64,000 nt of DNA from Actinomycetota bacterium. GTDB lineage: Bacteria > Actinomycetota > Aquicultoria > Aquicultorales > Aquicultoraceae. How positions within the stretch are numbered: position 1 is the stretch's first letter; the number at the start of each line of letters is the position of its first letter. The translations under genes were made by a program, and so were the position numbers. Of this stretch, positions 47,404 to 61,400 are shown piece after piece. The stretch is taken from positions 17,654-81,653 of the forward strand of contig JAGXSZ010000031.1 of the NCBI GenBank assembly GCA_018333515.1. The letters are read 5' to 3'. The notes beneath the pieces are model-generated. The model was given only the letters and a program-made list of their open reading frames with translations, did not search any database and was not told the origin of the DNA.

Positions 47404-49851
47404 TTAAATCGAGGCTGTGAGCTGCGGCGCCTTGAACCTGCGCAGCCTCAACGAATTCGATACCACCGAGACCGAGCTTAAAGCCATCGCCGCGGCCGCA
47501 TACATCGGATTTAGGCTAATCCCGAAGAACGGGTAGAGAACACCGGCCGCCACGGGTATCAGCATTATATTATAGAAGAACGCCCAGAACAGGTTCTGGT
47601 AGATGGTCTTGAGCGTTTTCCGGCTGAGCGCGATCGAGGTCACCAGGCCTTGGAGGTCGCCGCTGATCAGCGTGATATCGGATGCTTCGATTGCGACGTC
47701 GGTGCCGGTACCTATCGCGATACCGATGTTCGCCTGCGCGAGCGCCGGCGCGTCGTTGATGCCGTCGCCCACCATAGCAACGACCCGCCCCTCATCCTGG
47801 AGACGCTTTATCTGACGAGCTTTGTCGGCCGGGAGCACCTCCGCGAAGACGCGGGCGATGCCGACTTGGCTCGCGATAGCCTTGGCTGTCCGCTCATTGT
47901 CGCCGGTTATCATAATTACTTCGAGCCCCATGTCCTTAAGTCGCCCAACGGCGGCCTTCGAGTTCCCCTTTAAAACGTCGGCGACGGCGACTATGCCGAC
48001 CGCCTCCGTGTCGACCGAGATATACATGGGCGTCTTGCCCTCGGTGGAAAGCGTCGCGGCGACCCCGTCCAAGTCGTTGAGCGCGATATCGCGCTCGTCC
48101 ATTAGGCGGGCGTTGCCCAACATCACACGGCGCCCGTCGATGGTAGCGCCGATGCCTCGGCCGGTGAACGACTCGAAATCTTGCGGCTCTCCCAGGGTGA
48201 GCGCTCGTTCTTTGGCGCGGGCGACTATCGCTTCACCGAGCGGGTGTTCGGAACCGCGCTCCGCGGATGCGGCAAACCGTAAAATATCTTCGTCGCTAAA
48301 GCCGACCGCCGCGACAATATCGGTTAAGACCGGTTTGCCCTGCGTCAAAGTGCCTGTTTTATCCAGAACGATAGCGTTTATCTTGTGCGCGTTCTCAAGC
48401 GCCTGCGCGTCACGGATAAGGATGCCGTTCTGCGCGCCCTGGCCGGTGCCGACCATGATGGCCGTCGGCGTGGCCAGCCCCAGCGCGCACGGGCAAGCTA
48501 TAATCAACACGGCGACAAAGTTTAGTAAAGCTAACGTAAAGGCCGGTTTCGGGCCAAAGACGTACCAGACGACAAACGTCAGCACCGCGATAGTAATGAC
48601 CGTCGGCACAAAATAACTCGCTACGATGTCGGCGAGACGCTGGATGGGGGCTTTGGAGCCCTGCGCTTCCTCGACGAGTTTTACTATTTGCGCCAAGGCG
48701 GTCTCGCTGCCGACTTTGGTCGCCTTGAATTTGAATGCCCCGGTCCTGTTTATGGTCGCGCCTATCACCTCATCGCCGGCGCGCTTTTCGACCGGGATAC
48801 TCTCACCGGTTATCATCGACTCGTCTATCGACGAATAGCCGTCGACCACGATACCGTCGACCGGGATTTTCTCTCCGGGTCGAACCAGCACGATATCGCC
48901 GGCGACGATTGCGTCGATGGCTATATCGACCTCCCGGCCATCCCGGACTACGCGGCCGGTTTTCGCCTGGAGCCCGAGGAGTTTCTTTATAGCGTCCGAA
49001 GCCCTTCCCTTTGCTCTTGCCTCAAGATAGCGTCCGAAGAGGATGAGGGTGATAATCGTTGTGGAGGTATCGAAGTAGACCGCGGGCATGATCCCCTGGG
49101 CCTCGAAAAGCCCGGGGGTAAACGTTACCGCGACACTGTAGAGGTACGCGGCGGTCGTTCCGACCGCGACAAGCGTGTTCATGTCGGTGGCGCCGTGTTT
49201 GGCCGTAAGGTACGCCCCGCGGTAGAAACGCCGGCCCGCCCAGAACTGTACCGGAGTTGCCAGAGCTAAAAGTATCAAAAATCTCGTTTTGTCCGGGACC
49301 ATCATCAGCGCGGGGATAAGGTCGTGCATGCTGCCTATCATCACTATAACGGTGAGCGCCGCTGCGATGGTCAAGCGAGGCTTTATCTCTTCGGCTTCAC
49401 TCCGCGGCTTAAGCGCCTCCGCCGCGTCGTCCGTCTCCCGCACCTCATAGCCCGCATCGATTATCGCCTTCCTGAGTTGCCGCGGGGTCGCGACCGACGG
49501 AATATACGCGACGGTTCCCTTTTCGGTAGCCAGGTTGACATTGGCGGACAATACTCCCTCTACCGCGAGGAGCGCTTGCTCCACGCGGCGCACGCACGAA
49601 GCGCACGTCATCAAACCGATGGGGATGGCCGTCTCTTCGGCTTCGACTTCATAGCCCGCTTCTTTGATTGCCGCCAAAAGGTCGCCGACCGAGACTTTGT
49701 CCTTATCGATCTCGACAGTCGCCTTCCGGCTCGCCAGGCTGACGTTTACACCTATTACACCGTCTACTTTCCGGAGCGCCGTTTCCACGCGGCGCACGCA
49801 CGACGCTCAGGTCATGCCCGTGACGGGAAGAATCACTTTTATCGTCTCCAC
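47404..49851 (-). CDS. copA: Cu(I)-exporting P1B-type ATPase with two N-terminal HMA domains. The first HMA CxxC has an in-frame TGA in place of the first Cys.
   Basis: CPC (IIACPCALG), [13 protein letters not shown] and TGES motifs. The second HMA domain has GLMTCASC. The ORF track starts at 49797 (GTG), but the frame continues upstream to GTG 49851 (RBS AAGGTGA) with a single TGA at 49807-49809, reading [25 protein letters not shown]. Confidence 0.85.
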
Positions 49852-49860
49852 GACTTCACC

Positions 49861-49886
49861 TTCTATTCTTATCTTCTATTCTTATC
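49861..49886. repeat. Perfect 13-nt tandem duplication in the copA 5' leader
   Basis: TTCTATTCTTATC occurs twice back to back (49861-49873 and 49874-49886), immediately upstream of the copA RBS on the minus strand. Confidence 0.9.
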
Positions 49887-49944
49887 TAAGATAGAGCGTG
49901 TTTCTACGCGCCGAATCGATATTCCTCTTATGATACGCATCCAA

Positions 49945-49977: not shown

Positions 49978-50002
49978 ACATATACCCTTGCCCCCTATAT
50001 GT
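49978..50002. promoter_or_regulatory. 7-bp inverted repeat flanking C-tracts (candidate metal-regulator operator upstream of copA)
   Basis: ACATATA-CCCTTGCCCCC-TATATGT. The AT-rich arms with a C-rich core resemble CsoR-type sites, but the core is not a C-tract/G-tract dyad. Confidence 0.35.
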
Positions 50003-50073
50003 ACAAAGTTATCATTTGCGAACTTGCCAAGTCAAATCGTCAGCCATATAGCGAGGTGGATTTATATGGATTG

Positions 50074-50102
50074 TTGACACTTTCACAACATCCTAAGATA
50101 AT
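50074..50102 (+). promoter_or_regulatory. Candidate sigma-70-type promoter of csoR
   Basis: TTGACA (50074-50079), 17 nt, GATAAT (50097-50102), followed by AGGGGTATAC overlapping the predicted transcription start. RBS GAGGTGGAG precedes the ATG at 50144. Confidence 0.6.
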
Positions 50103-50143
50103 AGGGGTATACGTATCTAGGCGAGGTCGAATGAGGTGGAGAA

Positions 50144-50419
50144 ATGACTTCATATACAGCCGACAAAGAAAAGATTTTATCAAGACTTAAGCGTATTGAG
50201 GGGCAACTCCGCGGTATCCAGCGGATGGTAAACGACGAAAAGTATTGCGTCGACATTCTGGTCCAGATATCGTCGGTTCTCGGCGCGACTCAGCGAGTAG
50301 GACTAATCATCCTTGACGACCACATCAAAGGCTGTGTGCGAGAGGCCATGTCGAGCGAGGACGAAGACTCGGCCATACAGGAACTGATGGATGTAATCCA
50401 GCGTTTTGTAAAGACCTAA
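50144..50419 (+). CDS. csoR: CsoR-family copper-sensing transcriptional repressor
   Basis: 91 aa with RLKRIEGQLRGIQRMV....YC.DIL.Q and H..GC, the C-H-C Cu(I) ligand pattern of CsoR/RcnR. It is divergent from copA. Confidence 0.9.
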   Translation: MTSYTADKEKILSRLKRIEGQLRGIQRMVNDEKYCVDILVQISSVLGATQRVGLIILDDHIKGCVREAMSSEDEDSAIQELMDVIQRFVKT

Positions 50420-50498
50420 CCGCTTCGGCACCCTCGTCAACTCTACCGAACGGCCGGCAGCGGGCCGGTCTCTATACCACATGGGCGCCGATTGTGAG

Positions 50499-51230
50499 CT
50501 AAACTGCGTCGCGGTCGCCTGTGCCGACTCCGCTTGGAGCGCGCAACACCGCCCCGGTCGCCGCGTCACTCACTATGACACCATCTCTCAACTCTATCAA
50601 ACGACCGGTATCGCGAATCGAGTCGGGATTGTGCGTGACCATTATTATGGTTTGGCCGTCCGCGTGCAAGGCTTGAAAGAGGTCGAGAATCTCGGAACCG
50701 GTCTTGCTGTCGAGACTGCCCGTCGGCTCGTCGGCGAGGAGCATAGGCGGGTCGTTTACGATAGCGCGCGCGATGGCGACACGGCTTTGCTCGCCTCCGG
50801 AAAGCTCCGACGGCAACCGTCTTGCTTTGTCCCCGAGGCCGACTTTTTCGAGCATCCGAGCCGCCCGCCCTTTCTTGTCCTTGACGTCGGACACGACCAA
50901 CGGCAGCATCACGTTTTCGAGCGCCGTAAGATACGGTATGAGCTGTGGCTGCTGAAAGACGAATCCCAAGTATTCGCGCCTGAAATCGGCCCGTTTCTCC
51001 TGCGATAGCGCGTAGACGTCGATACCGTCGACGAGGAGCGCGCCCTCACTCGGCGGGTTCATCGCACCCAAGATCGCCAGCAACGTGCTCTTTCCGCTCC
51101 CCGATGGGCCCATGACCGCGATATACTCGCCCGGCTCGATTGTAAAATCGACGTGCCGCAACGCATGGACTCTCGTCTCCTCATCGTTCCCATAATACTT
51201 GCAGACCCCGTTCGCTATCACCAGCGACAT
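50499..51230 (-). CDS. ABC transporter ATP-binding protein (MacB/LolD/FtsE-like)
   Basis: Walker [10 protein letters not shown], signature [14 protein letters not shown] and Walker [13 protein letters not shown]. Confidence 0.9.
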
Positions 51231-51261
51231 TAATAAAACCTCCTATGAAAGAAATCTACCC

Positions 51262-52419
51262 CTAAAGACTTTTGAGCGCGTCGGACGGATCCATGTTCGC
51301 CGCGCGGCGCGCCGGCATCGCGCTCGAGACGAGTCCGACGAAGACCGCTATCGCGAGCGCCAATAAAAAGACCGACGAACCGGCCTCGACCCGCAGTTCG
51401 ATACCTCGCACGAACCGCGGCAACGCGTATGTGGCGCCGAAACCGACAATATAGCCGACAATACCGCCGACAACGCTGACCGCCAGCGCCTCGGTTAGAA
51501 TTATCCGGGCAACGCTCGACTTCCGGTACCCCATCGCCCGAAATACGCCTATCTCTTGCTTGCGTTCGTTTACCGATGAGGTCATCGTCACAAAGACTAT
51601 AAACCCGCTTATCATTATGATAATCGCCGTCACCATCAACCCGAATCTGACGAGTGAGCCCATCGCCTCTTCCCGATATTTGACCGCCTGCTTGATTGAG
51701 GAGACCTCGGCACCCGGAAGCGCCTTCTCCAACTCGGCCACGACGGTGTCGATTTGGTCGCTTCGCCGCGCCGATATTTCAATGAGGCTCAACTCTTGAC
51801 CGCGGCCAAAGAGCGACTGCGCCAATTCGATATCGCTAAAGACCAGGCCGTCATCTTGGCTTCCGGTCTCATGTAAAATACCCGCCACCTTAAAGGTCTG
51901 TGAGCCGATTTTCACCGAATCGCCCACTTTTAGGCGGAGGCTCTTTGCGGCATCCGAACCGAGAATGACCTGGTCTTTCGACGAAGGTTTGTGCCCCGTG
52001 ACCTTCCACCACTTCTTAACCTGAAACTCCTCGTCGAAATCGACCCCGACAAGGAGCGCCTTCTTATTCTTGACCTCGATCGCCTGTAAGACCTTGGGCG
52101 ATATGGCCATAATATGATCCGCACTCCGAATCCGGCGCGCTTTCCCGAGGTCCGCTTCGGTCAAGGTTTCGACCTCGAACGTGTCGACGCCCGAGATATT
52201 CATGCCGCCGTAATTTAGCGAGAGGCTCGAAGAGGCGGGGTAAACCACGATATTGAAGCCGTACGCGTCGAGCTGGGTGTCGATGCTCTTTTCGAAAGCG
52301 AGCATCAAGGTGACGATAGAGACCATCGTCGCGATACCGACGGCCAACCCGACGACGACCAGCGTCGCCTTCCCTTTTCGTCGCGCGAGATTCTTAAAAG
52401 CAATCGTATGTAATCTCAT
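51262..52419 (-). CDS. FtsX/MacB-type ABC transporter permease
   Basis: 385 aa. It has TM1, a large extracytoplasmic domain, then three C-terminal TMs with the FtsX-family motif (EIGVFRAMGY). Confidence 0.85.
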   Translation of the reverse strand: MRLHTIAFKNLARRKGKATLVVVGLAVGIATMVSIVTLMLAFEKSIDTQLDAYGFNIVVYPASSSLSLNYGGMNISGVDTFEVETLTEADLGKARRIRSADHIMAISPKVLQAIEVKNKKALLVGVDFDEEFQVKKWWKVTGHKPSSKDQVILGSDAAKSLRLKVGDSVKIGSQTFKVAGILHETGSQDDGLVFSDIELAQSLFGRGQELSLIEISARRSDQIDTVVAELEKALPGAEVSSIKQAVKYREEAMGSLVRFGLMVTAIIIMISGFIVFVTMTSSVNERKQEIGVFRAMGYRKSSVARIILTEALAVSVVGGIVGYIVGFGATYALPRFVRGIELRVEAGSSVFLLALAIAVFVGLVSSAMPARRAANMDPSDALKSL

Positions 52420-52428
52420 CAGAACATC

Positions 52429-53601
52429 CTATGTTATAGAGTTTAACGCCTCGGACGGGTCGAGGCGGGCGGCGACTGTCGCCGGATACACGCCTGCCAA
52501 CAACGATAGAACGACTACGCCGCCGATGGCAATAGCCGGGACGATAGGGTCGAAGACGACACCGACGTCCATACCGGTGGCGATCGGCGCGATATAGCCC
52601 GACGCCGAAAAACCGGCGAGATACCCGCCGACTCCGGCGACCAGTCCGACTATGGCCGATTCTAAGAGCACTATGAGGGCGATGTGAGACCGGCGGTAGC
52701 CGACCGCGCGAAAGACCCCTATTTCCCGGCGCCGCTCCCGAACCGCGCTCAACGTGTTCGTAAAGACTACGAGCGCGGCAACGATACCCATCGTCACCGA
52801 GAGTATCAGGCTGAAGAGGCTGAATTGGCCGATGACGGCATCGCGCGTCTCGGCGGCTTGGCGCACCGCCGCGACTTTGGCTCCCGGCAATTTCTCCCTT
52901 ACCTGCTCGACTATGTCATCAATGGGACAATCTTTGCACCACGCCGAGACCTCCGCGAAGCTGACCTCGCCCGGCCGCTCAAGGATAGCCTGGGCCTGCT
53001 TCATGCCTATAAATATTAGTTCGTCTTCTTCCGTGCCGACCTGTCCGAGTACACCGGCGACCCGAAACTCTTCGCCGGAGATGTTTAAGCTATCCCCGGC
53101 GCCTGCCCCGAGTCTGCGCGCCGCTTTACCGCCGAGTAAGATCTCGCGGTCGTTGGCGGGACGAACGCCCTGCTTTATCTCCCACCACTTCTTAAGATCG
53201 AACTCATCTTTGAAGCGAACCCCGGCGAGCATCGTCTTCGACCCGTTTACCTCGACTATGCCGAGGAGTTTCGGCGAGACGACCTTTACGTTGGCGCTCT
53301 CCTCTATGGTGCGGATCTTTTCGAGGTCTTTCTCGGTGAGCGAGTGCGAGCCGTACTGCAAGCCGCCGACGGTCACACCCGCGTATGTGAGGGGCAAGCT
53401 CTCGCTCTTGGGCGTAATGACCATATTCGCTCCGTACTCGTCGATTTTGTCCTGCAGGTCCATATGCATGGCTCTGGAGACCGTGTATAATCCGACGATG
53501 ACCGCTACGCCGACCGCGAGCCCGGCCACCAAAAGCGCGACCTTCGCGGGGTGCGTCTTTATATTCTTCCACGTTATGTGGTAGAGCCTCACAAAATTCA
53601 C
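52429..53601 (-). CDS. FtsX/MacB-type ABC transporter permease (paralogue of the downstream gene)
   Basis: 390 aa with the same topology and EIGVFRAVGY. Confidence 0.85.
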   Translation of the reverse strand: MNFVRLYHITWKNIKTHPAKVALLVAGLAVGVAVIVGLYTVSRAMHMDLQDKIDEYGANMVITPKSESLPLTYAGVTVGGLQYGSHSLTEKDLEKIRTIEESANVKVVSPKLLGIVEVNGSKTMLAGVRFKDEFDLKKWWEIKQGVRPANDREILLGGKAARRLGAGAGDSLNISGEEFRVAGVLGQVGTEEDELIFIGMKQAQAILERPGEVSFAEVSAWCKDCPIDDIVEQVREKLPGAKVAAVRQAAETRDAVIGQFSLFSLILSVTMGIVAALVVFTNTLSAVRERRREIGVFRAVGYRRSHIALIVLLESAIVGLVAGVGGYLAGFSASGYIAPIATGMDVGVVFDPIVPAIAIGGVVVLSLLAGVYPATVAARLDPSEALNSIT

Positions 53602-53691
53602 CTTTACATTAACTCTTAATCTTTATCTTAAACACTCATCGTTGACGCCGGGGTTTTGAGCCCCACGCCCCGTTTATTGCCCGCTTGCAAC

Positions 53692-53757
53692 GCGCCCCTC
53701 GGGCGGGCGCACCACAAGTGCTTCCGATAGCGCGAGCGCGCGCCCCTCGGGCGGGCG
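53692..53757. repeat. Two copies of an 18-nt GC-rich hairpin-forming direct repeat
   Basis: GCGCCCCTCGGGCGGGCG at 53692-53709 and 53740-53757. Each contains CGCCC-CTC-GGGCG. They lie between the Cys-rich protein gene and the first permease gene. Confidence 0.85.
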
Positions 53758-53761
53758 ACGA

Positions 53762-54247
53762 TTACTTAGGACGCACTGGAAACAACGTCTCTGAGAACTC
53801 GCCGTTTCTAAAAGAAAGTTCGGTGACTGCTTTGCCGTCCTTCTTAATCGTAATCTCGTAATGACATCCTAAGCTTTCGGCCTCGGCGGTGACCTCACGG
53901 TCGCCCGTTCTCTCGGCATAGTAATCCATAGCGGCCTTCTCTATCGCGGCAAGCTCCGTCGAGGCGGCCTGCGAACCGCCGGGGGCAACCTGTGCGGCCG
54001 AAGAACCGCAACTATCGCCACAGCTACCGCCGCCGCAAGAGCCCGGTTCGAACGCGGCTGCCTGGTTCGAAGCAACCGATTTTATGACATTGTTGAACAC
54101 GAGAAAGAGCGCGACAACCGCGACCCAAATCACCACATACTTGAGGGCCCGGCTCTTGGTGTCTTGCCTGGGGCTCACCTCGTCCGCTTCGCTCTTTGCC
54201 TCTTCGATCCTGCTCTCGTCCATAGGGGCCTCCTTACGCGTTGGCAT
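53762..54247 (-). CDS. Membrane-anchored protein with SCG-repeat Cys cluster and small C-terminal domain (function unknown)
   Basis: One TM segment (YVVIWVAVVALFLVF) and the extracytoplasmic run GSCGGGSCGDSCGSS, then a ~70-aa domain. The start could be MDESR at 54223. Confidence 0.6.
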   Translation of the reverse strand: MPTRKEAPMDESRIEEAKSEADEVSPRQDTKSRALKYVVIWVAVVALFLVFNNVIKSVASNQAAAFEPGSCGGGSCGDSCGSSAAQVAPGGSQAASTELAAIEKAAMDYYAERTGDREVTAEAESLGCHYEITIKKDGKAVTELSFRNGEFSETLFPVRPK

Positions 54248-54310
54248 ACATAAACTCCGCTAATTCCATCGTCACTTTTTTATGCCGTAAGACCGATTCG
54301 CGATAGACTA

Positions 54311-54985
54311 TTATTCATCGCCGACCGGCCTGTCGAGCGGCTGCGGCTCCCAGTCGGCCAGGTCGGCCTCGGCCAGCTCGATGTTTTTACCGACAAGTTC
54401 GTGCGCAATCGCATCGGCCGGATATAGCTTACATGAGCCGGAGATGCCGGCTTCGGTCTCAGGGTCGCGTTTGGTGCCGCAAGCATTACACGTCAGCGTC
54501 CCGTCGGCCTCAAAATGATGATACTTGGCCTGACAAGGCGGGCAATAACTTACTCCGGTAAAGAGTTCGCCCGAGGGCTTGATGTAAGCCATCATCGAGA
54601 TTGATTGGCCGTCCTTCGGCCGAAGATACTCAAAAGATACGATGCGGTCGACGATGACGTCTCCCGCTTTGATTATTACTTTGCCGTCCTTAACCTCGGG
54701 AATAACCGGAACCATGTCTATCCGGCGGTCGTAAACGACCGGCTCGGTCAGTTTCTCCGGTTTAAAATCGGACGGCAAATACCTGCCGATATATTTTGCC
54801 TCGGCGGCTGTCGGTTGCACCGAACCCGGCGTCTTGCCCGAGTTTGCATAGGCGACTATGAAACCCACGATAGCTACAACCGCGACGCTCAGCACGACGT
54901 ATAGAAGCGCCGGTTTCTTATTCTTCGGCTCGACAAAGTGTGCGCGCTTGCCTTTAAGCCTCTCATTAGCGTTCTTCTTATCCAC
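54311..54985 (-). CDS. DUF2318-like membrane-anchored Cys4 (metal/Fe-S-binding) protein
   Basis: N-terminal TM segment, then SYCPPCQ...CNACG...GSC. I recall this as the DUF2318 arrangement seen next to FtsX/ABC genes in iron-uptake loci. Confidence 0.6.
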   Translation of the reverse strand: MDKKNANERLKGKRAHFVEPKNKKPALLYVVLSVAVVAIVGFIVAYANSGKTPGSVQPTAAEAKYIGRYLPSDFKPEKLTEPVVYDRRIDMVPVIPEVKDGKVIIKAGDVIVDRIVSFEYLRPKDGQSISMMAYIKPSGELFTGVSYCPPCQAKYHHFEADGTLTCNACGTKRDPETEAGISGSCKLYPADAIAHELVGKNIELAEADLADWEPQPLDRPVGDE

Positions 54986-55139
54986 AACTAATCACCTCTC
55001 TAAATCTTTTTATATCTAATCGGCCGGCAATGCCTTGGCCTGATACCCATGTCCGCGTCAAAAATAAACCGGGCACACGAGCAAGTCTATCTTAACACAT
55101 CTACTACGGCCCATAGTAGTTAAACATAAAAAATTTTCA

Positions 55140-56111
55140 CTACTTGCAACATCCGTGGTTCTTAGCCACGCAGTCCGGTCCCTTACAGCAACCACCGACC
55201 GCATTTGCGTCTATCGCCGGCTGCGCATATGCAAAGCCCGCAACGATCAGCACAATGGTTGCGCTTGCGACGATGCTCAGCATCAACCCGGAGATAGAGG
55301 GGCGCGCTTTTATCTTCGGGTCGAGAAGACGTTGAACACGGTCTTTAGCCGACGCTCTCCCGGAGAAAAACGTCGCGTACGCCGGCGAGAACGTCACGCC
55401 GCGGGTAACCCTGGCCACAGAGACGATAGCCTCGGCCAGCTCGACCGGTTTTGCGGTAAGCTCGACCGCGAAGTCGTCGGCGGCGTATTCCTTCTCGCGA
55501 ACGAACAGGCCGAGCAAGTAGTGGCTTATCGGGAGAGGCCAGAGAAAATCACGGATGAAGATCGCGGCGAAGATCGCGAGGTTATCGCGACGCCGAACGT
55601 GGCCGATTTCGTGGGCGAGCAGCGCCGTCAGCTCATCATCTCTTAATTTGTCGATAAGCCCTTTAGAGATACATATAGAAGGGGCCAGCAGACCGTGCGT
55701 AAACGCCGCCACAGACTCGTCGTCGGCTATCCGAACCCTCATCTCTTCGGCGTTCAGCCCTAATAGGAGACGCTTAAGACGCGGCGATTCCTCTCCGTTG
55801 CGCTCATAACGCGCCGCCATCCTTCGGGCTGAAGCGAGCACAAGCACAGCTTTTACCAGCGCCGCGCCGAGCGCCACGATAGCCAAACTTACCAAAAGGT
55901 TCCGCGGGCTTCCTATAATTTGAGCGATGGATATATACGCGTCTTTGCATTCTGTCCCGAAACCCGCGCACGTCTCGGCGATACGCTTGACGGCAACGCC
56001 GTTCGCGAGCCACCGGTCGATGTTGTAGCCGATTGCCCCAATAGCCGCAAACCCCAATACGAGAAGGCCGATTATACTGATGCGCGTATTTCGCGAGGGC
56101 GTCTTGGTCAT
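55140..56111 (-). CDS. BlaR1/MecR1-type M56 zinc metalloprotease signal transducer lacking a penicillin-binding domain, with a Cys-rich C-terminal tail
   Basis: HEIGHVRRRD (HExxH), several TM segments and a final TM followed by only ~27 aa (QPAIDANAVGGCCKGPDCVAKNHGCCK). It overlaps the upstream BlaI-like gene by 4 nt. Confidence 0.75.
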   Translation of the reverse strand: MTKTPSRNTRISIIGLLVLGFAAIGAIGYNIDRWLANGVAVKRIAETCAGFGTECKDAYISIAQIIGSPRNLLVSLAIVALGAALVKAVLVLASARRMAARYERNGEESPRLKRLLLGLNAEEMRVRIADDESVAAFTHGLLAPSICISKGLIDKLRDDELTALLAHEIGHVRRRDNLAIFAAIFIRDFLWPLPISHYLLGLFVREKEYAADDFAVELTAKPVELAEAIVSVARVTRGVTFSPAYATFFSGRASAKDRVQRLLDPKIKARPSISGLMLSIVASATIVLIVAGFAYAQPAIDANAVGGCCKGPDCVAKNHGCCK

Positions 56112-56533
56112 TCCTCTATCCGACTTCTCTTCTGCTTAATCAGGCGCTCAAGCTCGTCGAGGGTCGCTGTGTCTTCGGTGATGTTCTCGACAAAAAAACT
56201 TAAAGCTTGCTTTCCGAGGTCTTCATGGAAACCGTTGAATACCGAGGCGAACATGGTCTGGTTGAACTCTTCTTTGCTAAGGAGCGCCCTATAGAGATAT
56301 TGCTTTCCGTTGCGCTCTTGAAATAGGATGTTTTTCTCGGCCAAGCGGCTCATTACCGTCATTACGGTCGTATAAGCTATTTCGCGGTCTCTCTCAAGGA
56401 TACCGTGGATCTCCCTTACGCTTGCCGGGTCTTTCTCCCATACAAGCTCCATTATGTCGGCCTCAAGGTCACCGAGCATCTTTCTCACACCCGACTCGGC
56501 CGGTCGAAAACTTCCCAGCTTGAACCGCTTCAT
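56108..56533 (-). CDS. BlaI/MecI/CopY-family winged-helix repressor
   Basis: 141 aa with E..IM..VW.....SVREI...L......AYTTVMTVMSRL..K. There is no C-terminal CxCxxxxCxC, so it is not a CopY-type direct copper sensor. Confidence 0.85.
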   Translation of the reverse strand: MKRFKLGSFRPAESGVRKMLGDLEADIMELVWEKDPASVREIHGILERDREIAYTTVMTVMSRLAEKNILFQERNGKQYLYRALLSKEEFNQTMFASVFNGFHEDLGKQALSFFVENITEDTATLDELERLIKQKRSRIEE

Positions 56534-56563
56534 AAAAGCCTCTCAAGAAAACGTAAAACGATT

Positions 56564-56580
56564 TACTATGCTTTGTAGTA
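56564..56580. promoter_or_regulatory. Candidate BlaI-type operator
   Basis: TACTA-TGCTTTG-TAGTA dyad lies 31 nt upstream of the BlaI-like start. It contains TAC/GTA half-sites like BlaI/MecI/CopY boxes, but not the exact TACAnnTGTA. Confidence 0.3.
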
Positions 56581-56636
56581 TATCCTTTATTTGTCAGTTT
56601 GCCAATATTAAACACACCTTTTGTATGAAAAATCTC

Positions 56637-56664
56637 TTCACTTCCGATATTCTTGTGATAAAAT
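56637..56664 (+). promoter_or_regulatory. Candidate promoter of ccdA
   Basis: TTCACT (56637-56642), 16 nt ending in TGa, TAAAAT (56659-56664). Confidence 0.35.
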
Positions 56665-56698
56665 GATTGCGGAACACAGATACCGGTAGGGGGTATAT

Positions 56699-57421
56699 AT
56701 GGGCGGCAGTCCCGACATTGGAATACTTATAGCGTTTACAGCGGGCATTATATCGTTCTTATCACCCTGTATTTTGCCGCTCATCCCAGGGTACCTCTCC
56801 TTTATATCGGGAATCTCCGTCGACCGCCTCGGCGAATCGAGCGGCCGGGAACGGTTCAAAATCCTATTCGCCACCCTCTTGTTTGTGGCCGGCTTTGCGA
56901 CGATATTCGTCGGTCTGGGCGTATCGGCCGGCCTGGTAGGCGTTTCCTTGACGAACTATCAATCGATTATGACAAAAGTGGCCGGTATCACCATTATCCT
57001 GTTCGCCTTGTTCACAATGGATATCATTAAAATACCGCAGCTCTACAACACCAAGCGTTTTCAATCAAAGACCACGCGCCAACGGAGTCTATGGGGGGCG
57101 CTGCCGCTGGGCATGGCCTTTGGTTTCGCCTGGACACCGTGTGTCGGCCCGGTGCTCGGCTCGATATTCATGGTGGCCGCGACCGGCGACAACGTTAGTC
57201 AGGGAGCGGTACTCTTGAGCGTCTACGCCCTCGGCCTGGGTATTCCGTTTATCGCGACGGCGCTCTTCTTCAACACGGCGCTCAACGCGTTCGGCTGGAT
57301 AAAAAGGAATTATCGCGCGGTAAATATAGTAAGCGGGGTACTACTGCTGGCAATGGGCATTTTAATACTGACCAATAAGATGGCGGCGGTCAACTCGTAT
57401 ATATTGAAACTGACCGGCTAG
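56699..57421 (+). CDS. ccdA: CcdA/DsbD-family thiol-disulfide transporter (cytochrome c maturation)
   Basis: 240 aa with 6 TM segments. The first TM has SPCILPLIPGYL and the fourth has TPCVGPVLG, the two conserved Cys of CcdA. Confidence 0.9.
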   Translation: MGGSPDIGILIAFTAGIISFLSPCILPLIPGYLSFISGISVDRLGESSGRERFKILFATLLFVAGFATIFVGLGVSAGLVGVSLTNYQSIMTKVAGITIILFALFTMDIIKIPQLYNTKRFQSKTTRQRSLWGALPLGMAFGFAWTPCVGPVLGSIFMVAATGDNVSQGAVLLSVYALGLGIPFIATALFFNTALNAFGWIKRNYRAVNIVSGVLLLAMGILILTNKMAAVNSYILKLTG

Positions 57422-57680: not shown

Positions 57681-57904
57681 AACCGTATCGTAGCTTCCTA
57701 GAAGTCCTAACCGTATATACATTAGGCTAGCTCAGCTGAGTTAATGCTGCTGAGCGAGTGCTCGGCTCATAAGCATAAGCGGATATGATTTGCGATCAAT
57801 ATGTGTTATCATGTTACAAACTTTTGTGTTTTAACTAAAGTCAAATGCGCTTAAGCCGATGTCTCTTTAATGCAAGCAAAAACAACCATGGGGACGGTAC
57901 ATCA

Positions 57905-58777
57905 ATGCCAGACTTAAAAGGGATGTCTTCCAGGACAAAAAAACTTATCTTAACGATAGCCGCTTCCCTCACGGTCTTTTCCATTGCTGTCGTGGTAGCC
58001 GGAACGGCTATGACGAGTCGTCCGCAAACCTGCAGCCTCTGCCACGCAATGCAAGAGCCTGTCAAAGCGTGGCAGGCCTCATCGCATGAAAAAATAACCT
58101 GTATCGAATGCCACCACAAGGAACCCGGCTATTTAGGGTTTGCCGTAGGTATTCCCACCAAGGTCAGTGAGGCTACGAAGCACATCACCGGCGACTATCA
58201 GATCCCGGTTAGAGCGAAGCACGACACCAAGAGTAAGGTCTGCCAAAAATGTCACGTTAGCTGGCGAAACGTATCCCCCGGCGGCGACCTTATCATACCC
58301 CACAATCTCCACTTCGAGAAACGCAAAATCGAATGCGTCGTATGCCACTCCTCGGTCGTCCACGGCGAGGACAGGGATAACGAGATTACGAGGCGTCCGG
58401 CAATGCAGCTCTGCTTGAGTTGCCACGATACCGGCAGAGAGAACGCGCCTATCCTTAAGTGTAAGGATTGCCATACTGAAAAAGGCGTACCGTCGAGCCA
58501 TAACGAAAAAGATTGGTTCGAGATGCACGGGCAGCTCTATAAGGACCCGAATCATCCCGACAGCCAATGCGACGATTGCCATGGTTGGACGCCGACATTC
58601 TGCAGCGACTGCCATAAGAGCAAGCTTCCGACGACCCACTACGGCGGCAGCCAGTGGAAGACATTTCACAGCATTCGCGCCAAAGTCAGAAAGAGCGGTT
58701 GTCTGGTCTGTCATGACGCGAAGACCTTCTGTTATAGGTGTCACGATCCATTTGAAGATGTTGAGAAGGGTAAATAA
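57905..58777 (+). CDS. Membrane-anchored decahaem c-type cytochrome (NapC/NirT-like N-terminus plus paired CxxCH motifs)
   Basis: One N-terminal TM segment (LILTIAASLTVFSIAVVVAG). Ten CxxCH motifs: CSLCH, CIECH, CQKCH, CVVCH, CLSCH, CKDCH, CDDCH, CSDCH, CLVCH, CYRCH. I chose the start MPDLK (57905). The ORF track runs from 57845. Confidence 0.85.
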   Translation: MPDLKGMSSRTKKLILTIAASLTVFSIAVVVAGTAMTSRPQTCSLCHAMQEPVKAWQASSHEKITCIECHHKEPGYLGFAVGIPTKVSEATKHITGDYQIPVRAKHDTKSKVCQKCHVSWRNVSPGGDLIIPHNLHFEKRKIECVVCHSSVVHGEDRDNEITRRPAMQLCLSCHDTGRENAPILKCKDCHTEKGVPSSHNEKDWFEMHGQLYKDPNHPDSQCDDCHGWTPTFCSDCHKSKLPTTHYGGSQWKTFHSIRAKVRKSGCLVCHDAKTFCYRCHDPFEDVEKGK

Positions 58778-58779
58778 AC

Positions 58780-59619
58780 GTGAGCAACGAGGCTAAGGGA
58801 TTGCTGGGTAAAATCAAAGATTTCTACAATAACAACCAACGCAAGGCGAATATCATCATAATCGCGATTGCGGCGTTTGGTGTCTTCACCTATGGAGCGC
58901 TCCAATATACCGGAAGTCCCGGCTTCTGCAAAAGTTGCCATGAGATGAACCCGGCCTTCGATAGCTGGAAAGCCTCGGTCCACTCGGAGGTAACCTGCTA
59001 TTCGTGCCATATGCCGCCGGGCATCGTAAACTTCGCGACCCACAAAGTGATCGCCTTAAAGGAAGTCTACCTTCACTTTACGGTCTACAATAAGCCAAAC
59101 GCGCCGAAGATAGTCGCACGTCAAAAAGAGCCGGTCAATGACGCCTGCGGTAATTGTCACTCCCTCAACAGGGAGATGGCGTTCGGCGGCGGTCTCAACG
59201 TGCCCCATAAGCTCCATATCGAACAAGGACTAAAGTGCACGACTTGTCACGCGAGAGTAGTTCACGGGCTCGGCGACGATAAGGCCCGCAAGCCGAAGAT
59301 GGAAACGTGTATGAAGTGCCACGACGGCAAGAAAGCGCCCGATAAATGCGATGTCTGCCATACCAAGATGGGGACTCCTGAAAGTCATCAGCAGGCGAAC
59401 TGGTTCAAAGTCCATGGTGAGCAATCCAAGACCATTAAATGTAACGAGTGCCATAACTGGAGACCCGACTGGTGTATGGATTGCCATACCAAGAAACCCG
59501 AATCGCACGCCGTGCGCTGGAGGTCGAACCATGGCTCGGCGGCGAAAGCTGCTCGGGACGGCTGCAACGCTTGCCACACGCTCGACTTCTGCATGCGCTG
59601 TCATGGTGTCCAACCTTAA
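58780..59619 (+). CDS. Membrane-anchored decahaem c-type cytochrome, collinear paralogue of the upstream gene
   Basis: GTG start 2 nt after the upstream stop and a TM segment (IIIIAIAAFGVFTYGAL). Ten CxxCH motifs: CKSCH, CYSCH, CGNCH, CTTCH, CMKCH, CDVCH, CNECH, CMDCH, CNACH, CMRCH, with the same spacing pattern as the previous protein. Confidence 0.85.
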   Translation: MSNEAKGLLGKIKDFYNNNQRKANIIIIAIAAFGVFTYGALQYTGSPGFCKSCHEMNPAFDSWKASVHSEVTCYSCHMPPGIVNFATHKVIALKEVYLHFTVYNKPNAPKIVARQKEPVNDACGNCHSLNREMAFGGGLNVPHKLHIEQGLKCTTCHARVVHGLGDDKARKPKMETCMKCHDGKKAPDKCDVCHTKMGTPESHQQANWFKVHGEQSKTIKCNECHNWRPDWCMDCHTKKPESHAVRWRSNHGSAAKAARDGCNACHTLDFCMRCHGVQP

Positions 59620-59852
59620 TAAGCGAGTATGCCGCTAAAGACTAGACGGTAAATCTAAACGCCGGGCGAGCACCGGTATTATCTGCAAGATTCTCGATAT
59701 CTCAACTCCCGAACATGTTGGGCTCATTAATCCGCAATTCGACCTTGCCGAGGTTTGACTCAGAGCTCTCCGGCGCTTACGCAAAACAAAAGATACTCGC
59801 GGCTGTTGTAAAATCCCTCTCTTAATCCTAAGATTGAGACAGGAGGCCGAAG

Positions 59853-61400
59853 ATGAACTGCGATGATGCCAGGCGTTCGCTCGCCGACTACACTGACGAC
59901 CAACTAAGTGAAGATATTCGCCGCGACGTCGAGGAGCATCTCACAACATGCGGCGAATGCGCTGCTATACCGGCTAAGTTACGCGAACTTCCCCAGTCGT
60001 TGCGAGACATCCCTCCTCTTCTCGTCCCGGAATCCATATATCAGCAGCTAGCCGACAAAGCGGCCGGGACGTTTAAAGCTACAGCGGGTAGACGCAAAAT
60101 CGCGCCCCGAGGCCTGGAACGGTTTGCGCGCTCGGCTACACTTGGCGTCGCCGCTATCTTCATAGCCGTGACTCTTGCCGCCTTCACCTTCGCCCTCATG
60201 TTCGATCAGGGGTTCGCAATACTGGATATCTTCAACATCAGTGACCTCGCGCCCGAACCGGGACAGAGTGCCGCTGAGAGGACCCTGAACCAGAGCTTTG
60301 AAGACCTCGTGTTAAAAGCAGAGAGCGGTGGCCCCAGAGCCTATGATTACCTCCCGCGCCCGGAAATCTTAGTGTCGGGAAAACACTACGCTGAGGATGC
60401 CTTGGAACAGGTCGCGATCCAGCCCATAATCGTCGCTTTTTCTCAGGAATACCGGACCGTCGAAGCAAAGCTCTACCGAGCCAACATCATATCTGAGATT
60501 ACAGCTCAAGCGGCTATCCTTGGTCTGGAGAAGCGCGTTTTGGGTCGGTGTATGGAGACCATTCTTGCGACGACAAACGACCTCGCCCTCCCCTCTTACG
60601 TCGAAAAAGCCTTCTTGAACGAAAAAGAGGTCTTGTTTATCGTCGTCAACCGCACCGATGCGAAAAGCGGTAAACTGCTCACCGGAATCTCGGTCTTCGC
60701 GTTCGACCCTGCAACCGCATCCATTGTGGCGACCTGGCCGCAGACTCCATTGAGCCAGGCGGTCGAGTTGCGTGACATTAATCCGCACAAATCGCTTGCC
60801 TGCATCGCATGCCACCCTAACTTTGAGGGTTCGACAAAAGATCTCGAGGACGCAGGCTGGAAAGAGGTCGCCAAGCGTACCTGCTCGCAATGCCACAGCC
60901 ACAAAAAGCAGCACGAAATTTATGCTAAGAGCATCCACGGGCAATTGGCGCTCAGCAAAAGAACCGGTAAAGGGGGCGTGCCGGCGCCGGCTTGCGGCGA
61001 CTGCCACGATGCGCACGCGACGCTGGCATCGAACAAGAAACCGCAAACCCTTGCCGAGATGAGAACTCACGCCAAAAATATTTGCGGCGACTGCCATAAA
61101 GACTATTGGGAATCGTACAACGATTATTACCACGGTAAAGCATATAAAGCGGCCGCCCCCGACGCACCGGCATGTTGGGACTGCCACGGAAACCACGACA
61201 TTCAACCTTCGCGCAATCCGAAATCGCGAGTATCCGGAAAAAACTTGCCGAAAACTTGTAGTGCCTGCCATGCGGAAGCTGAGCTAAAGTTCGTCAAATA
61301 TGGAAAAATGGTGCATGGTATGAAAGCGGAGCAAGACAAAAGTCCGGTTTGGCGGCAATTCGACAGCGGGCTCGAAGCGTTGAAAGGACTTCTGAGATGA
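59853..61400 (+). CDS. Zinc-anti-sigma (zf-HC2)-like N-terminal domain - TM - extracytoplasmic domain - C-terminal hexahaem cytochrome c domain
   Basis: N-terminus MNCDDARRSL...EEHLTTCGEC (C...H-x3-C-x2-C) and a TM segment LGVAAIFIAVTLAAFTFALMF. Six CxxCH motifs lie in the last ~190 aa (CIACH, CSQCH, CGDCH, CGDCH, CWDCH, CSACH). RBS AGGAGG. Confidence 0.8.
   Translation: MNCDDARRSLADYTDDQLSEDIRRDVEEHLTTCGECAAIPAKLRELPQSLRDIPPLLVPESIYQQLADKAAGTFKATAGRRKIAPRGLERFARSATLGVAAIFIAVTLAAFTFALMFDQGFAILDIFNISDLAPEPGQSAAERTLNQSFEDLVLKAESGGPRAYDYLPRPEILVSGKHYAEDALEQVAIQPIIVAFSQEYRTVEAKLYRANIISEITAQAAILGLEKRVLGRCMETILATTNDLALPSYVEKAFLNEKEVLFIVVNRTDAKSGKLLTGISVFAFDPATASIVATWPQTPLSQAVELRDINPHKSLACIACHPNFEGSTKDLEDAGWKEVAKRTCSQCHSHKKQHEIYAKSIHGQLALSKRTGKGGVPAPACGDCHDAHATLASNKKPQTLAEMRTHAKNICGDCHKDYWESYNDYYHGKAYKAAAPDAPACWDCHGNHDIQPSRNPKSRVSGKNLPKTCSACHAEAELKFVKYGKMVHGMKAEQDKSPVWRQFDSGLEALKGLLR

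Follow-up and report, generated by a model that had tools for sequence, protein, structure and literature searches.

An in-frame TGA in copA, the gene for a copper-translocating P1B-type ATPase in an Actinomycetota genome, is very probably a conserved, hairpin-assisted recoding site of the selenocysteine (Sec) type, shared by a Candidatus Aquicultor-like clade. The gene lies in a stretch of 64,000 nucleotides (GenBank assembly GCA_018333515.1, contig JAGXSZ010000031.1, positions 17,654 to 81,653), which is referred to here as the window. The TGA occupies the first Cys codon of the GMTCxxC metal-binding motif in the first of two N-terminal HMA domains. As judged from sequence comparison, the TGA, the reading frame upstream of it and a hairpin downstream of it are each conserved under selection across the clade, and the hairpin decays on reversion of the TGA to TGC.

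Is this TGA a recoded codon, a lesion or an error? An earlier note on the same DNA had held the three to be equally simple explanations. The comparative data now separate them; the lesion and the error are rejected, and the selenocysteine recoding that the note had raised is supported by the conservation of the TGA, of the upstream open reading frame (ORF) and of the hairpin, and by a Cys-type relative nested within the clade. In the mechanism that we propose, translation would start at GTG 49851 and the UGA at codon 15 would be recoded, most likely as selenocysteine, by SelB with Sec-tRNA(Sec) bound to an mRNA hairpin that follows after 11 nt (49795-49776). Translation would yield a copper exporter of 815 residues with G-M-T-U-x-x-C in domain 1 and C-x-x-C in domain 2, and the Cu(I) ligands of domain 1 would be a selenolate and a thiolate. 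We infer both the identity of the inserted residue and the reading of the hairpin by SelB.

The TGA and its reading frame

The features of the copA locus that bear on the reading of the TGA are as follows (window coordinates).

47404..49851, minus strand: full-length copA coding sequence, 815 codons including the UGA proposed to be recoded, from the translation and from NCBIfam and Pfam matches
49856..49863, minus strand: Shine-Dalgarno-like GAAGGTGA, 4 nt upstream of GTG 49851
49810..49851, minus strand: the 14 codons 5' of the UGA, comprising the GTG start, the beta-1 strand and the GMT of HMA domain 1
49807..49809, minus strand: in-frame UGA, proposed Sec codon (UxxC); codon 15, at the first Cys of GMTCxxC in HMA domain 1
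49795..49797, minus strand: GTG (Val19), the start chosen by gene callers, which yields truncated public entries of 797 amino acids
49776..49795, minus strand: candidate bacterial selenocysteine insertion sequence (SECIS) hairpin, with a 6-bp G/C stem, GCGCCG/CGGCGC, and an 8-nt loop, CGUGGAAA
49648..49827, minus strand: HMA domain 1 with the UxxC motif, residues 9-68; Pfam PF00403, 62.9 bits, profile positions 3-62 of 62
49438..49626, minus strand: HMA domain 2 (limits approximate), with an ordinary CxxC, TGC at residue 83 and TGC at residue 86

The minus-strand frame is open from GTG 49851 through the TGA (49809-49807) to the TAA at 47406-47404, with no other stop in its 815 codons. For profile scoring of the product the TGA was read as Cys. 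The protein has two N-terminal HMA domains followed by E1-E2_ATPase and Hydrolase domains (Pfam), with the catalytic motifs CPC in the membrane domain and DKTGT. Its score of 669 bits against TIGR01525 (cut-off 346.25) places it among the P1B-type heavy-metal ATPases, and it scores 644.7 bits against TIGR01511 (cut-off 397). When the protein is begun at the annotated start, V19, HMA domain 1 matches PF00403 over positions 13-62 only, with 38.9 bits, against positions 3-62 and 62.9 bits with read-through. Because read-through gives a nearly full match and the V19 start does not, the TGA coincides exactly with the position of the first metal ligand in a domain that is complete. The earlier note had put the TGA at this Cys, had seen a complete HMA start upstream of the annotated GTG 49797 and a ribosome-binding site ahead of GTG 49851 (GAAGGTGA, 49863-49856), and had pointed to TGC in a nearly identical nucleotide context in HMA domain 2; all of this is borne out. 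Purine-rich strings also precede the corresponding copA starts in most orthologues. Directly upstream of the ribosome-binding site in the window is a direct repeat, AGATAAGAATAGA-AGATAAGAATAGA (49861-49889, minus strand).

The protein search was evaluated on the 120 matches closest to the CopA query, and the cluster counts given here apply to the matches listed. Among these are 19 protein clusters of 70-100% identity, all of which are annotated as beginning at (V/M)RRVETAL or METAL, right after the CxxC. A normal M...GMTCASC start is found in relatives of 66% identity or less and in one, P0016, at 73%. The nearest public CopA proteins are named 'Actinomycetota bacterium' or 'Candidatus Aquicultor sp.', and among species-representative genomes Candidatus Aquicultor primus (MELI01000096) and Candidatus Aquicultor sp. 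(JAUXNY010000137) come closest, each with 92% identity in CopA. A metagenome scan returned at least one close relative, and orthologous loci were collected individually. The set that was compared has 12 sequences, namely the window, Candidatus Aquicultor primus (L001), Candidatus Aquicultor sp. (L006), L081 and L161-L168, and the DNA of the loci other than the window comes from JGI, NCBI and ENA/Logan assemblies of different samples.

Gene order is common to these loci wherever flanks were fetched: a divergent csoR-type gene, copA, and genes for a metallophosphoesterase, a ROK kinase and a Lon-like protease. We take the 12 loci to be orthologous because this synteny is shared. An ABC-transporter and BlaR1-like block further upstream of csoR is also common to them.

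Does the homologous codon read TGA or TGC in these genes, as the earlier note had asked? It is TGA in 12/12 orthologues, which come from independent assemblies and have protein identities of 70-92%, and the exact copA sequence of the window, TGA included, recurs in two other JGI samples. The second ligand of HMA domain 1 is Cys, encoded by TGC or TGT, in all 12. The homologous codon is TGC in L169 (the locus of P0016), in the outgroups P0021, P0022 and P0025, and at 318 other HMA sites. A further truncated protein, P0050, was considered as a Sec-type case and rejected, as its gene is of the Cys type and only the start is mis-called.

The short ORF 5' of the TGA is conserved as protein, and thus translated. 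For codons -12 to -1, nonsynonymous divergence (dN) averages 0.23 and synonymous divergence (dS) 1.30 over 39 computable pairs, which is purifying selection. Each orthologue has the upstream frame M-x-x-K/R-F/Y-x-L/F-P-V/I-T/S-G-M-T, in which P, G, M and T are invariant as residues while P, G and T each use three synonymous codons. An ATG or GTG start is present 13-14 codons 5' of the TGA in every one of the 12. In L163 and L164, codon 19, where gene callers begin the protein, reads GTC or GTA and so is no start codon. The coding sequence is thus conserved on both sides of the UGA, on the 5' side by this dN and dS pattern and on the 3' side by an identity of 70-92% over the whole pump.

The hairpin downstream of the TGA

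Constraint at silent sites was measured on a codon alignment of the 12 copA genes, in which 421 columns have an invariant degenerate amino acid and the mean pairwise codon difference is 0.55. The three codons right after the TGA (A, S and C) vary at the gene-wide rate, with values of 0.77, 0.59 and 0.53. Over the next seven, codons 19-25 (V-R-R-V-E-T-A), the values are 0.32, 0.17, 0.30, 0, 0, 0 and 0.17. Their mean of 0.136 is the second lowest of 414 seven-codon windows (median 0.565), and the lowest window overlaps it. None of 200,000 random draws was as low, amino-acid-matched draws included. The second HMA domain of the same proteins serves as a paralogous control; its V-R-R-V and A codons score 0.68-0.77, and AGA, AGG, CGA, CGC and CGT are used freely.

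The frozen stretch is GUGCGCCGCGUGGAAACGGCGCU, and it forms the hairpin at 49795-49776. The hairpin follows the UGA after an 11-nt spacer, with 17 nt from the UGA to the loop, and has G and then U at loop positions 2-3. Stem pairing is kept in 95.8% of cells across the 12 sequences; three pairs never vary, one C-G becomes U-G, and two pairs at the base of the stem are lost in L163 and/or L164. In these two loci the first loop base is U in place of C, which may add a U-A pair on top of the stem, and RNAfold gives a 6-nt loop, GUGGAA. The energy is -11.7 kcal/mol in 10 of the 12 sequences; for L163 and L164 it is -8.6 and -3.5 kcal/mol at the hairpin columns and -11.3 and -6.2 kcal/mol for the local fold.

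The published bacterial SECIS consensus has an apical loop of 3-9 nt, a stem of 4-16 bp, 16-37 nt from UGA to loop and an energy of -7.5 kcal/mol or lower (PMC13188914, Fig. 2 legend), with G in the first two loop positions, usually followed by G or U (PMC13188914). In our own implementation of these rules, 11/12 Sec-type sites pass compared with 23/318 Cys-type HMA sites in the other fetched loci, a contrast that serves as description and not as a P value because the 12 sequences are related. The 6-bp GCGCCG/CGGCGC hairpin noticed earlier is therefore present, its synonymous sites are almost frozen, and the SECIS check suggested with it finds the 49795-49776 hairpin within the published constraints. 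The same note had offered as an alternative an 8-bp helix that starts inside the UGA. This helix is indeed the minimum-free-energy fold of the window sequence, but it is not conserved: at 8-9 bp, two of its nine pairs fall at wobble positions that vary without compensation and are broken in 9/12 and 5/12 sequences. Its 5' arm has no silent-site constraint, and it was rejected as a candidate.

What happens to the hairpin when the TGA is lost? In a neighbour-joining tree the TGA-containing proteins and those truncated as annotated form one clade, with Cys-type relatives of 66% identity or less outside it. The Cys-type P0016 (L169) is nested inside this Sec clade. L169 has TGC, and the codons that follow are GTG AAT CGT TTG GAA ACA GCA. 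Its hairpin is gone, with +6.9 kcal/mol at the same columns and a local minimum free energy of -1.0. The loss of both together in L169 ties the UGA and the hairpin to each other in function.

The silent-site contrast between the domains offers a simple test, light on assumptions, by which a bacterial SECIS element can be recognised without covariation. Two minor observations concern HMA domain 2. Only in three Aquicultor genomes does it use GTG CGC CGC GTG GAG (window 49575-49598, compared with 49776-49799 in domain 1; also L001 and L006), and all other orthologues have AGA/AGG-type codons at this stretch. The near-identity of the two domains in Aquicultor may reflect gene conversion between them or codon choice driven by GC content. 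Another hairpin, GAAGGG...CCCUUC (-8 to -13 kcal/mol), lies about 15-40 nt after the ordinary TGC in HMA domain 2 of L081, L161, L165, L167 and L168, and may be due to chance or a codon-pair effect or be a relic.

Proposed selenocysteine recoding and its alternatives

The strongest of the alternatives, which we still consider improbable, retains the SECIS-dependent site and changes the residue. Cys would be inserted, always or when selenium is scarce, by a tRNA of the tRNA-ReC (selC*) type. A tRNA(Sec)-like tRNA(Cys) has been reported to decode UGA as Cys with a downstream SECIS, which limits selenoprotein calls made from sequence only (PMC13582414). Nothing in the copA data separates Sec from Cys at codon 15. 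Against this, only about 2% of the genomes analysed with CxxU/UxxC-type genes had tRNA-ReC-like genes (PMC13582414), and there is no tRNA-ReC-like tRNA within the window. The Cys-type relative L169 has an ordinary TGC and has dropped the hairpin, which suggests that the UGA state provides something that Cys does not.

Somewhat less probable again is an old nonsense mutation, with HMA domain 1 dead and the pump made from GTG at Val19 or Val22 with HMA domain 2 alone. GTG codons are indeed present at residues 19 and 22 of copA, where gene callers place the start. Transport by CopA-type pumps often does not require their N-terminal metal-binding domains, which also counts for this explanation. 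However, a nonsense remnant is unlikely because the frame, the start codon and the dN/dS pattern are kept across lineages that differ at most silent sites; purifying selection still acts on the 12 codons 5' of the TGA. Two orthologues have GTC or GTA at codon 19, and initiation at residue 19 would remove both beta-1 and the loop that binds the metal, yet the remainder of domain 1 is conserved. In addition, silent sites are frozen exactly over a hairpin of SECIS geometry, and the sole lineage in which the codon has changed has changed it to Cys.

Genome-wide reassignment of TGA, say to Trp or Gly, is very improbable, and so is leakiness to near-cognate read-through in a cell that lacks Sec machinery. 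As reassignment would have it, TGA is the least frequent stop of the naively called ORFs in the window, at 8/62 (29 TAA, 25 TAG; the DNA is 55.6% G+C). On the other hand, TGA serves as an ordinary stop in this genome: well-supported genes finish with it where their domains naturally close, among them that for pyruvate kinase, two residues past the end of the PK_C profile, and that for Lon. The residue that relatives have at the copA site is Cys and neither Trp nor Gly. A search for further conserved in-frame TGAs in the coding frames of the approximately 20 kb shared with the orthologous loci gave none, and the other matches checked were antisense or out of frame. As for a sequencing or assembly error at 49807, an A written for a TGC, the two codons are one base apart and domain 2 has TGC in a nearly identical context, but the chance is negligible and the error is excluded because the TGA recurs in independent assemblies, in two other samples of identical sequence and in 11 further orthologues from different projects.

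Several points nevertheless weigh against Sec recoding of copA. The 12 sequences are related, so the counts do not represent 12 independent events. Within the 64-kb window, with about 55 annotated ORFs, there is no selA, selB, selD or tRNA-Sec. The UxxC ATPase family to which copA would belong is a predicted one, for which no experimental report was found in the literature searched. L164 keeps only 4-5 pairs of the hairpin and misses the -7.5 kcal/mol threshold. Taken as a single sequence, the window folds no better than dinucleotide shuffles (z = -0.30), and no compensatory double substitutions are seen in the hairpin among the 12 sequences, where it is nearly invariant and leaves nothing to count. 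The window holds one tRNA (Leu) and no other Rfam match at gathering score, and in 49740-49830, searched with E values of up to 10 allowed, the only matches were at chance level (E 1.4 and 3.8).

The Rfam result is not counted against function because bacterial SECIS elements are too diverse. As the single-sequence fold is insignificant, the evidence for a hairpin beyond chance comes from the comparison of orthologues, and the structure is accordingly proposed on conservation, geometry and controls, not on covariation. The comparative evidence is strong enough to predict that these genomes encode selA, selB, selC and selD. Candidatus Aquicultor and its relatives would then be decoders of selenocysteine.

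Does the UGA only place selenium at a copper site, or could it also act as a selenium-dependent switch? The latter is unlikely, if somewhat less so than the alternatives above. With selenium, the cell would make the pump with the selenolate-containing first metal-binding domain. With no selenium, translation would stop after 14 codons and re-initiate at the strictly conserved GTG of Val22 (or at Val19), or alternatively Cys would be inserted by a tRNA-ReC-like tRNA. By either route the pump would differ in its regulation, and the invariant GTG in the hairpin loop would have two roles.

Known relatives, copper context and annotation

A cation-transporting ATPase selenoprotein with a UxxC motif was listed in a study of Olavius symbionts (PMC1976440). 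In the Global Ocean Sampling data the corresponding entry (pfam00122, UxxC) has 1 Sec and 882 Cys sequences (PMC2398784), and a 2026 review gives TIGR01525, UxxC and ABB15669.1 (PMC13188914). Transporter selenoproteins are described there as predicted, with roles that need further investigation (PMC13188914). The copA gene shares with this predicted 'cation-transporting ATPase E1-E2, UxxC' family the TIGR01525 match, the UxxC motif and a UGA aligned with the Cys of homologues. It differs from ABB15669.1 in lineage, being from Candidatus Aquicultor (Actinomycetota), and is likened to it by the listed family and motif type only; in the window copA the U would be in the first of two HMA domains only. 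On every sequence-level feature tested for the family, namely TIGR01525, the aligned UGA, conservation of the flanks and a candidate SECIS, copA agrees. This fits a new member, in a new lineage (Actinomycetota, Aquicultor), of a known predicted UxxC ATPase selenoprotein family, and not a new kind. In the literature searched, the Aquicultor lineage was not noted as a carrier of such an ATPase, and nothing was found on selenium or selenocysteine in Aquicultor.

The candidate SECIS shares with the bSECISearch consensus a stem-loop position within the coding sequence and the ranges of loop, stem, UGA-to-loop distance and energy. Its 11-nt spacer and the GU at +22/+23 presumably resemble the Escherichia coli fdhF SECIS. 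Unlike the consensus and fdhF, it lacks a conserved lower stem and a bulged U, and its loop has three trailing A where the common bacterial pattern allows up to two. Its sequence is unrelated to any Rfam family, and binding by SelB is presumed.

The 'UxxU_metal_bind' family (NF041115) and the MerP and mercuric transport selenoproteins resemble the proposed Sec form of copA domain 1 in having an HMA-type ferredoxin-like fold with Sec for Cys of a CxxC. HMA domain 1 scores 89.5 bits against NF041115, below the cut-off of 95, and so falls outside that family. Proteins of the NF041115 type are small and stand alone with two Sec, whereas the single Sec of copA would be in a domain that forms part of a pump. 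Canonical CopA pumps under CsoR or CueR control (for example PRK10671, E. coli CopA) have the same architecture and catalytic motifs, and a csoR-type gene is divergent from copA here; they differ in having Cys at the first ligand of domain 1, where Sec is proposed for the window copA. The product scores 741 bits against PRK10671, for which the equivalog cut-off is 1316, and is not that equivalog.

The regulatory gene next to copA is the following.

50144..50419, plus strand: csoR-type copper-sensing repressor gene, divergent from copA; Pfam Trns_repr_metal, E 1.4e-29

Its best NCBIfam match is RicR, below the cut-off, and it is probably the regulator of copA. Candidate CsoR operators, boxes of the ATACCCC / GGGGTAT type, are present in the csoR-copA intergenic region at window positions 49990-50010 and 50101-50112. 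Boxes of this type also occur at two per locus in L161, L164, L165 and L168, about 115-135 bp apart. From 50144 to 57421 there is a conserved block, also present in L161-L168, with csoR, an ABC ATPase, two MacB/FtsX-type permeases, an unannotated 161-aa protein, an FtrD-like membrane protein, a BlaR1/M56-M48 sensor protease, a CopY/BlaI-type repressor and DsbD/CcdA. It is followed at 57845-61400 by NapC/NirT-type multihaem cytochromes. The block beside copA looks like a metal-stress and envelope-redox island. The divergent csoR-type repressor, together with the CopY/BlaI, BlaR1-like, FtrD-like, MacB-type and DsbD/CcdA genes nearby, argues for copper-induced expression of copA.

What might selenium add to such a pump? 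The N-terminal domains of CopA-type pumps receive Cu(I) from chaperones and modulate turnover, and are not the transport site. A selenolate ligand should remain deprotonated at neutral pH, bind Cu(I) tightly and be resistant to irreversible oxidation, and one or other of these properties may be what is selected. The selenolate may thus alter the copper affinity, the exchange rate or the oxidation resistance of a regulatory or chaperone-receiving domain. The clade is a natural experiment for the exchange of Sec for Cys at a metal-binding site, as opposed to a catalytic redox site. It also offers a matched set for studying the role of a selenolate in Cu(I) handling, with a proposed Sec domain and a Cys domain in one protein and a reverted, nested relative without the hairpin.

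The public entries examined for the clade are about 18-21 residues short, lack the first metal ligand and are not flagged as selenoproteins. The mis-annotated entries are MDI6816212.1, MDP2211950.1, HZD58938.1 and 16 further clusters, which are heavy-metal P-type ATPases of 792-806 residues that start inside HMA domain 1. One truncated entry is labelled Anaerolineae, yet its locus has the Aquicultor-type synteny.

The rest of the window contains genes for enolase, pyruvate kinase, Mfd, Pth, and PrsA-type and GlmU-type proteins, along with the metal- and respiration-related block. On an unrelated metagenome contig, Ga0209427_10003337 (L096:5415-12397), a Cys-type copA that is 59% identical directly adjoins a complete Sec-machinery cluster. 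This cluster comprises selA (TIGR00474, 550 bits), selB (TIGR00475, 337 bits) and a selD whose own active-site position is an in-frame TGA (GAG*ASKIG).

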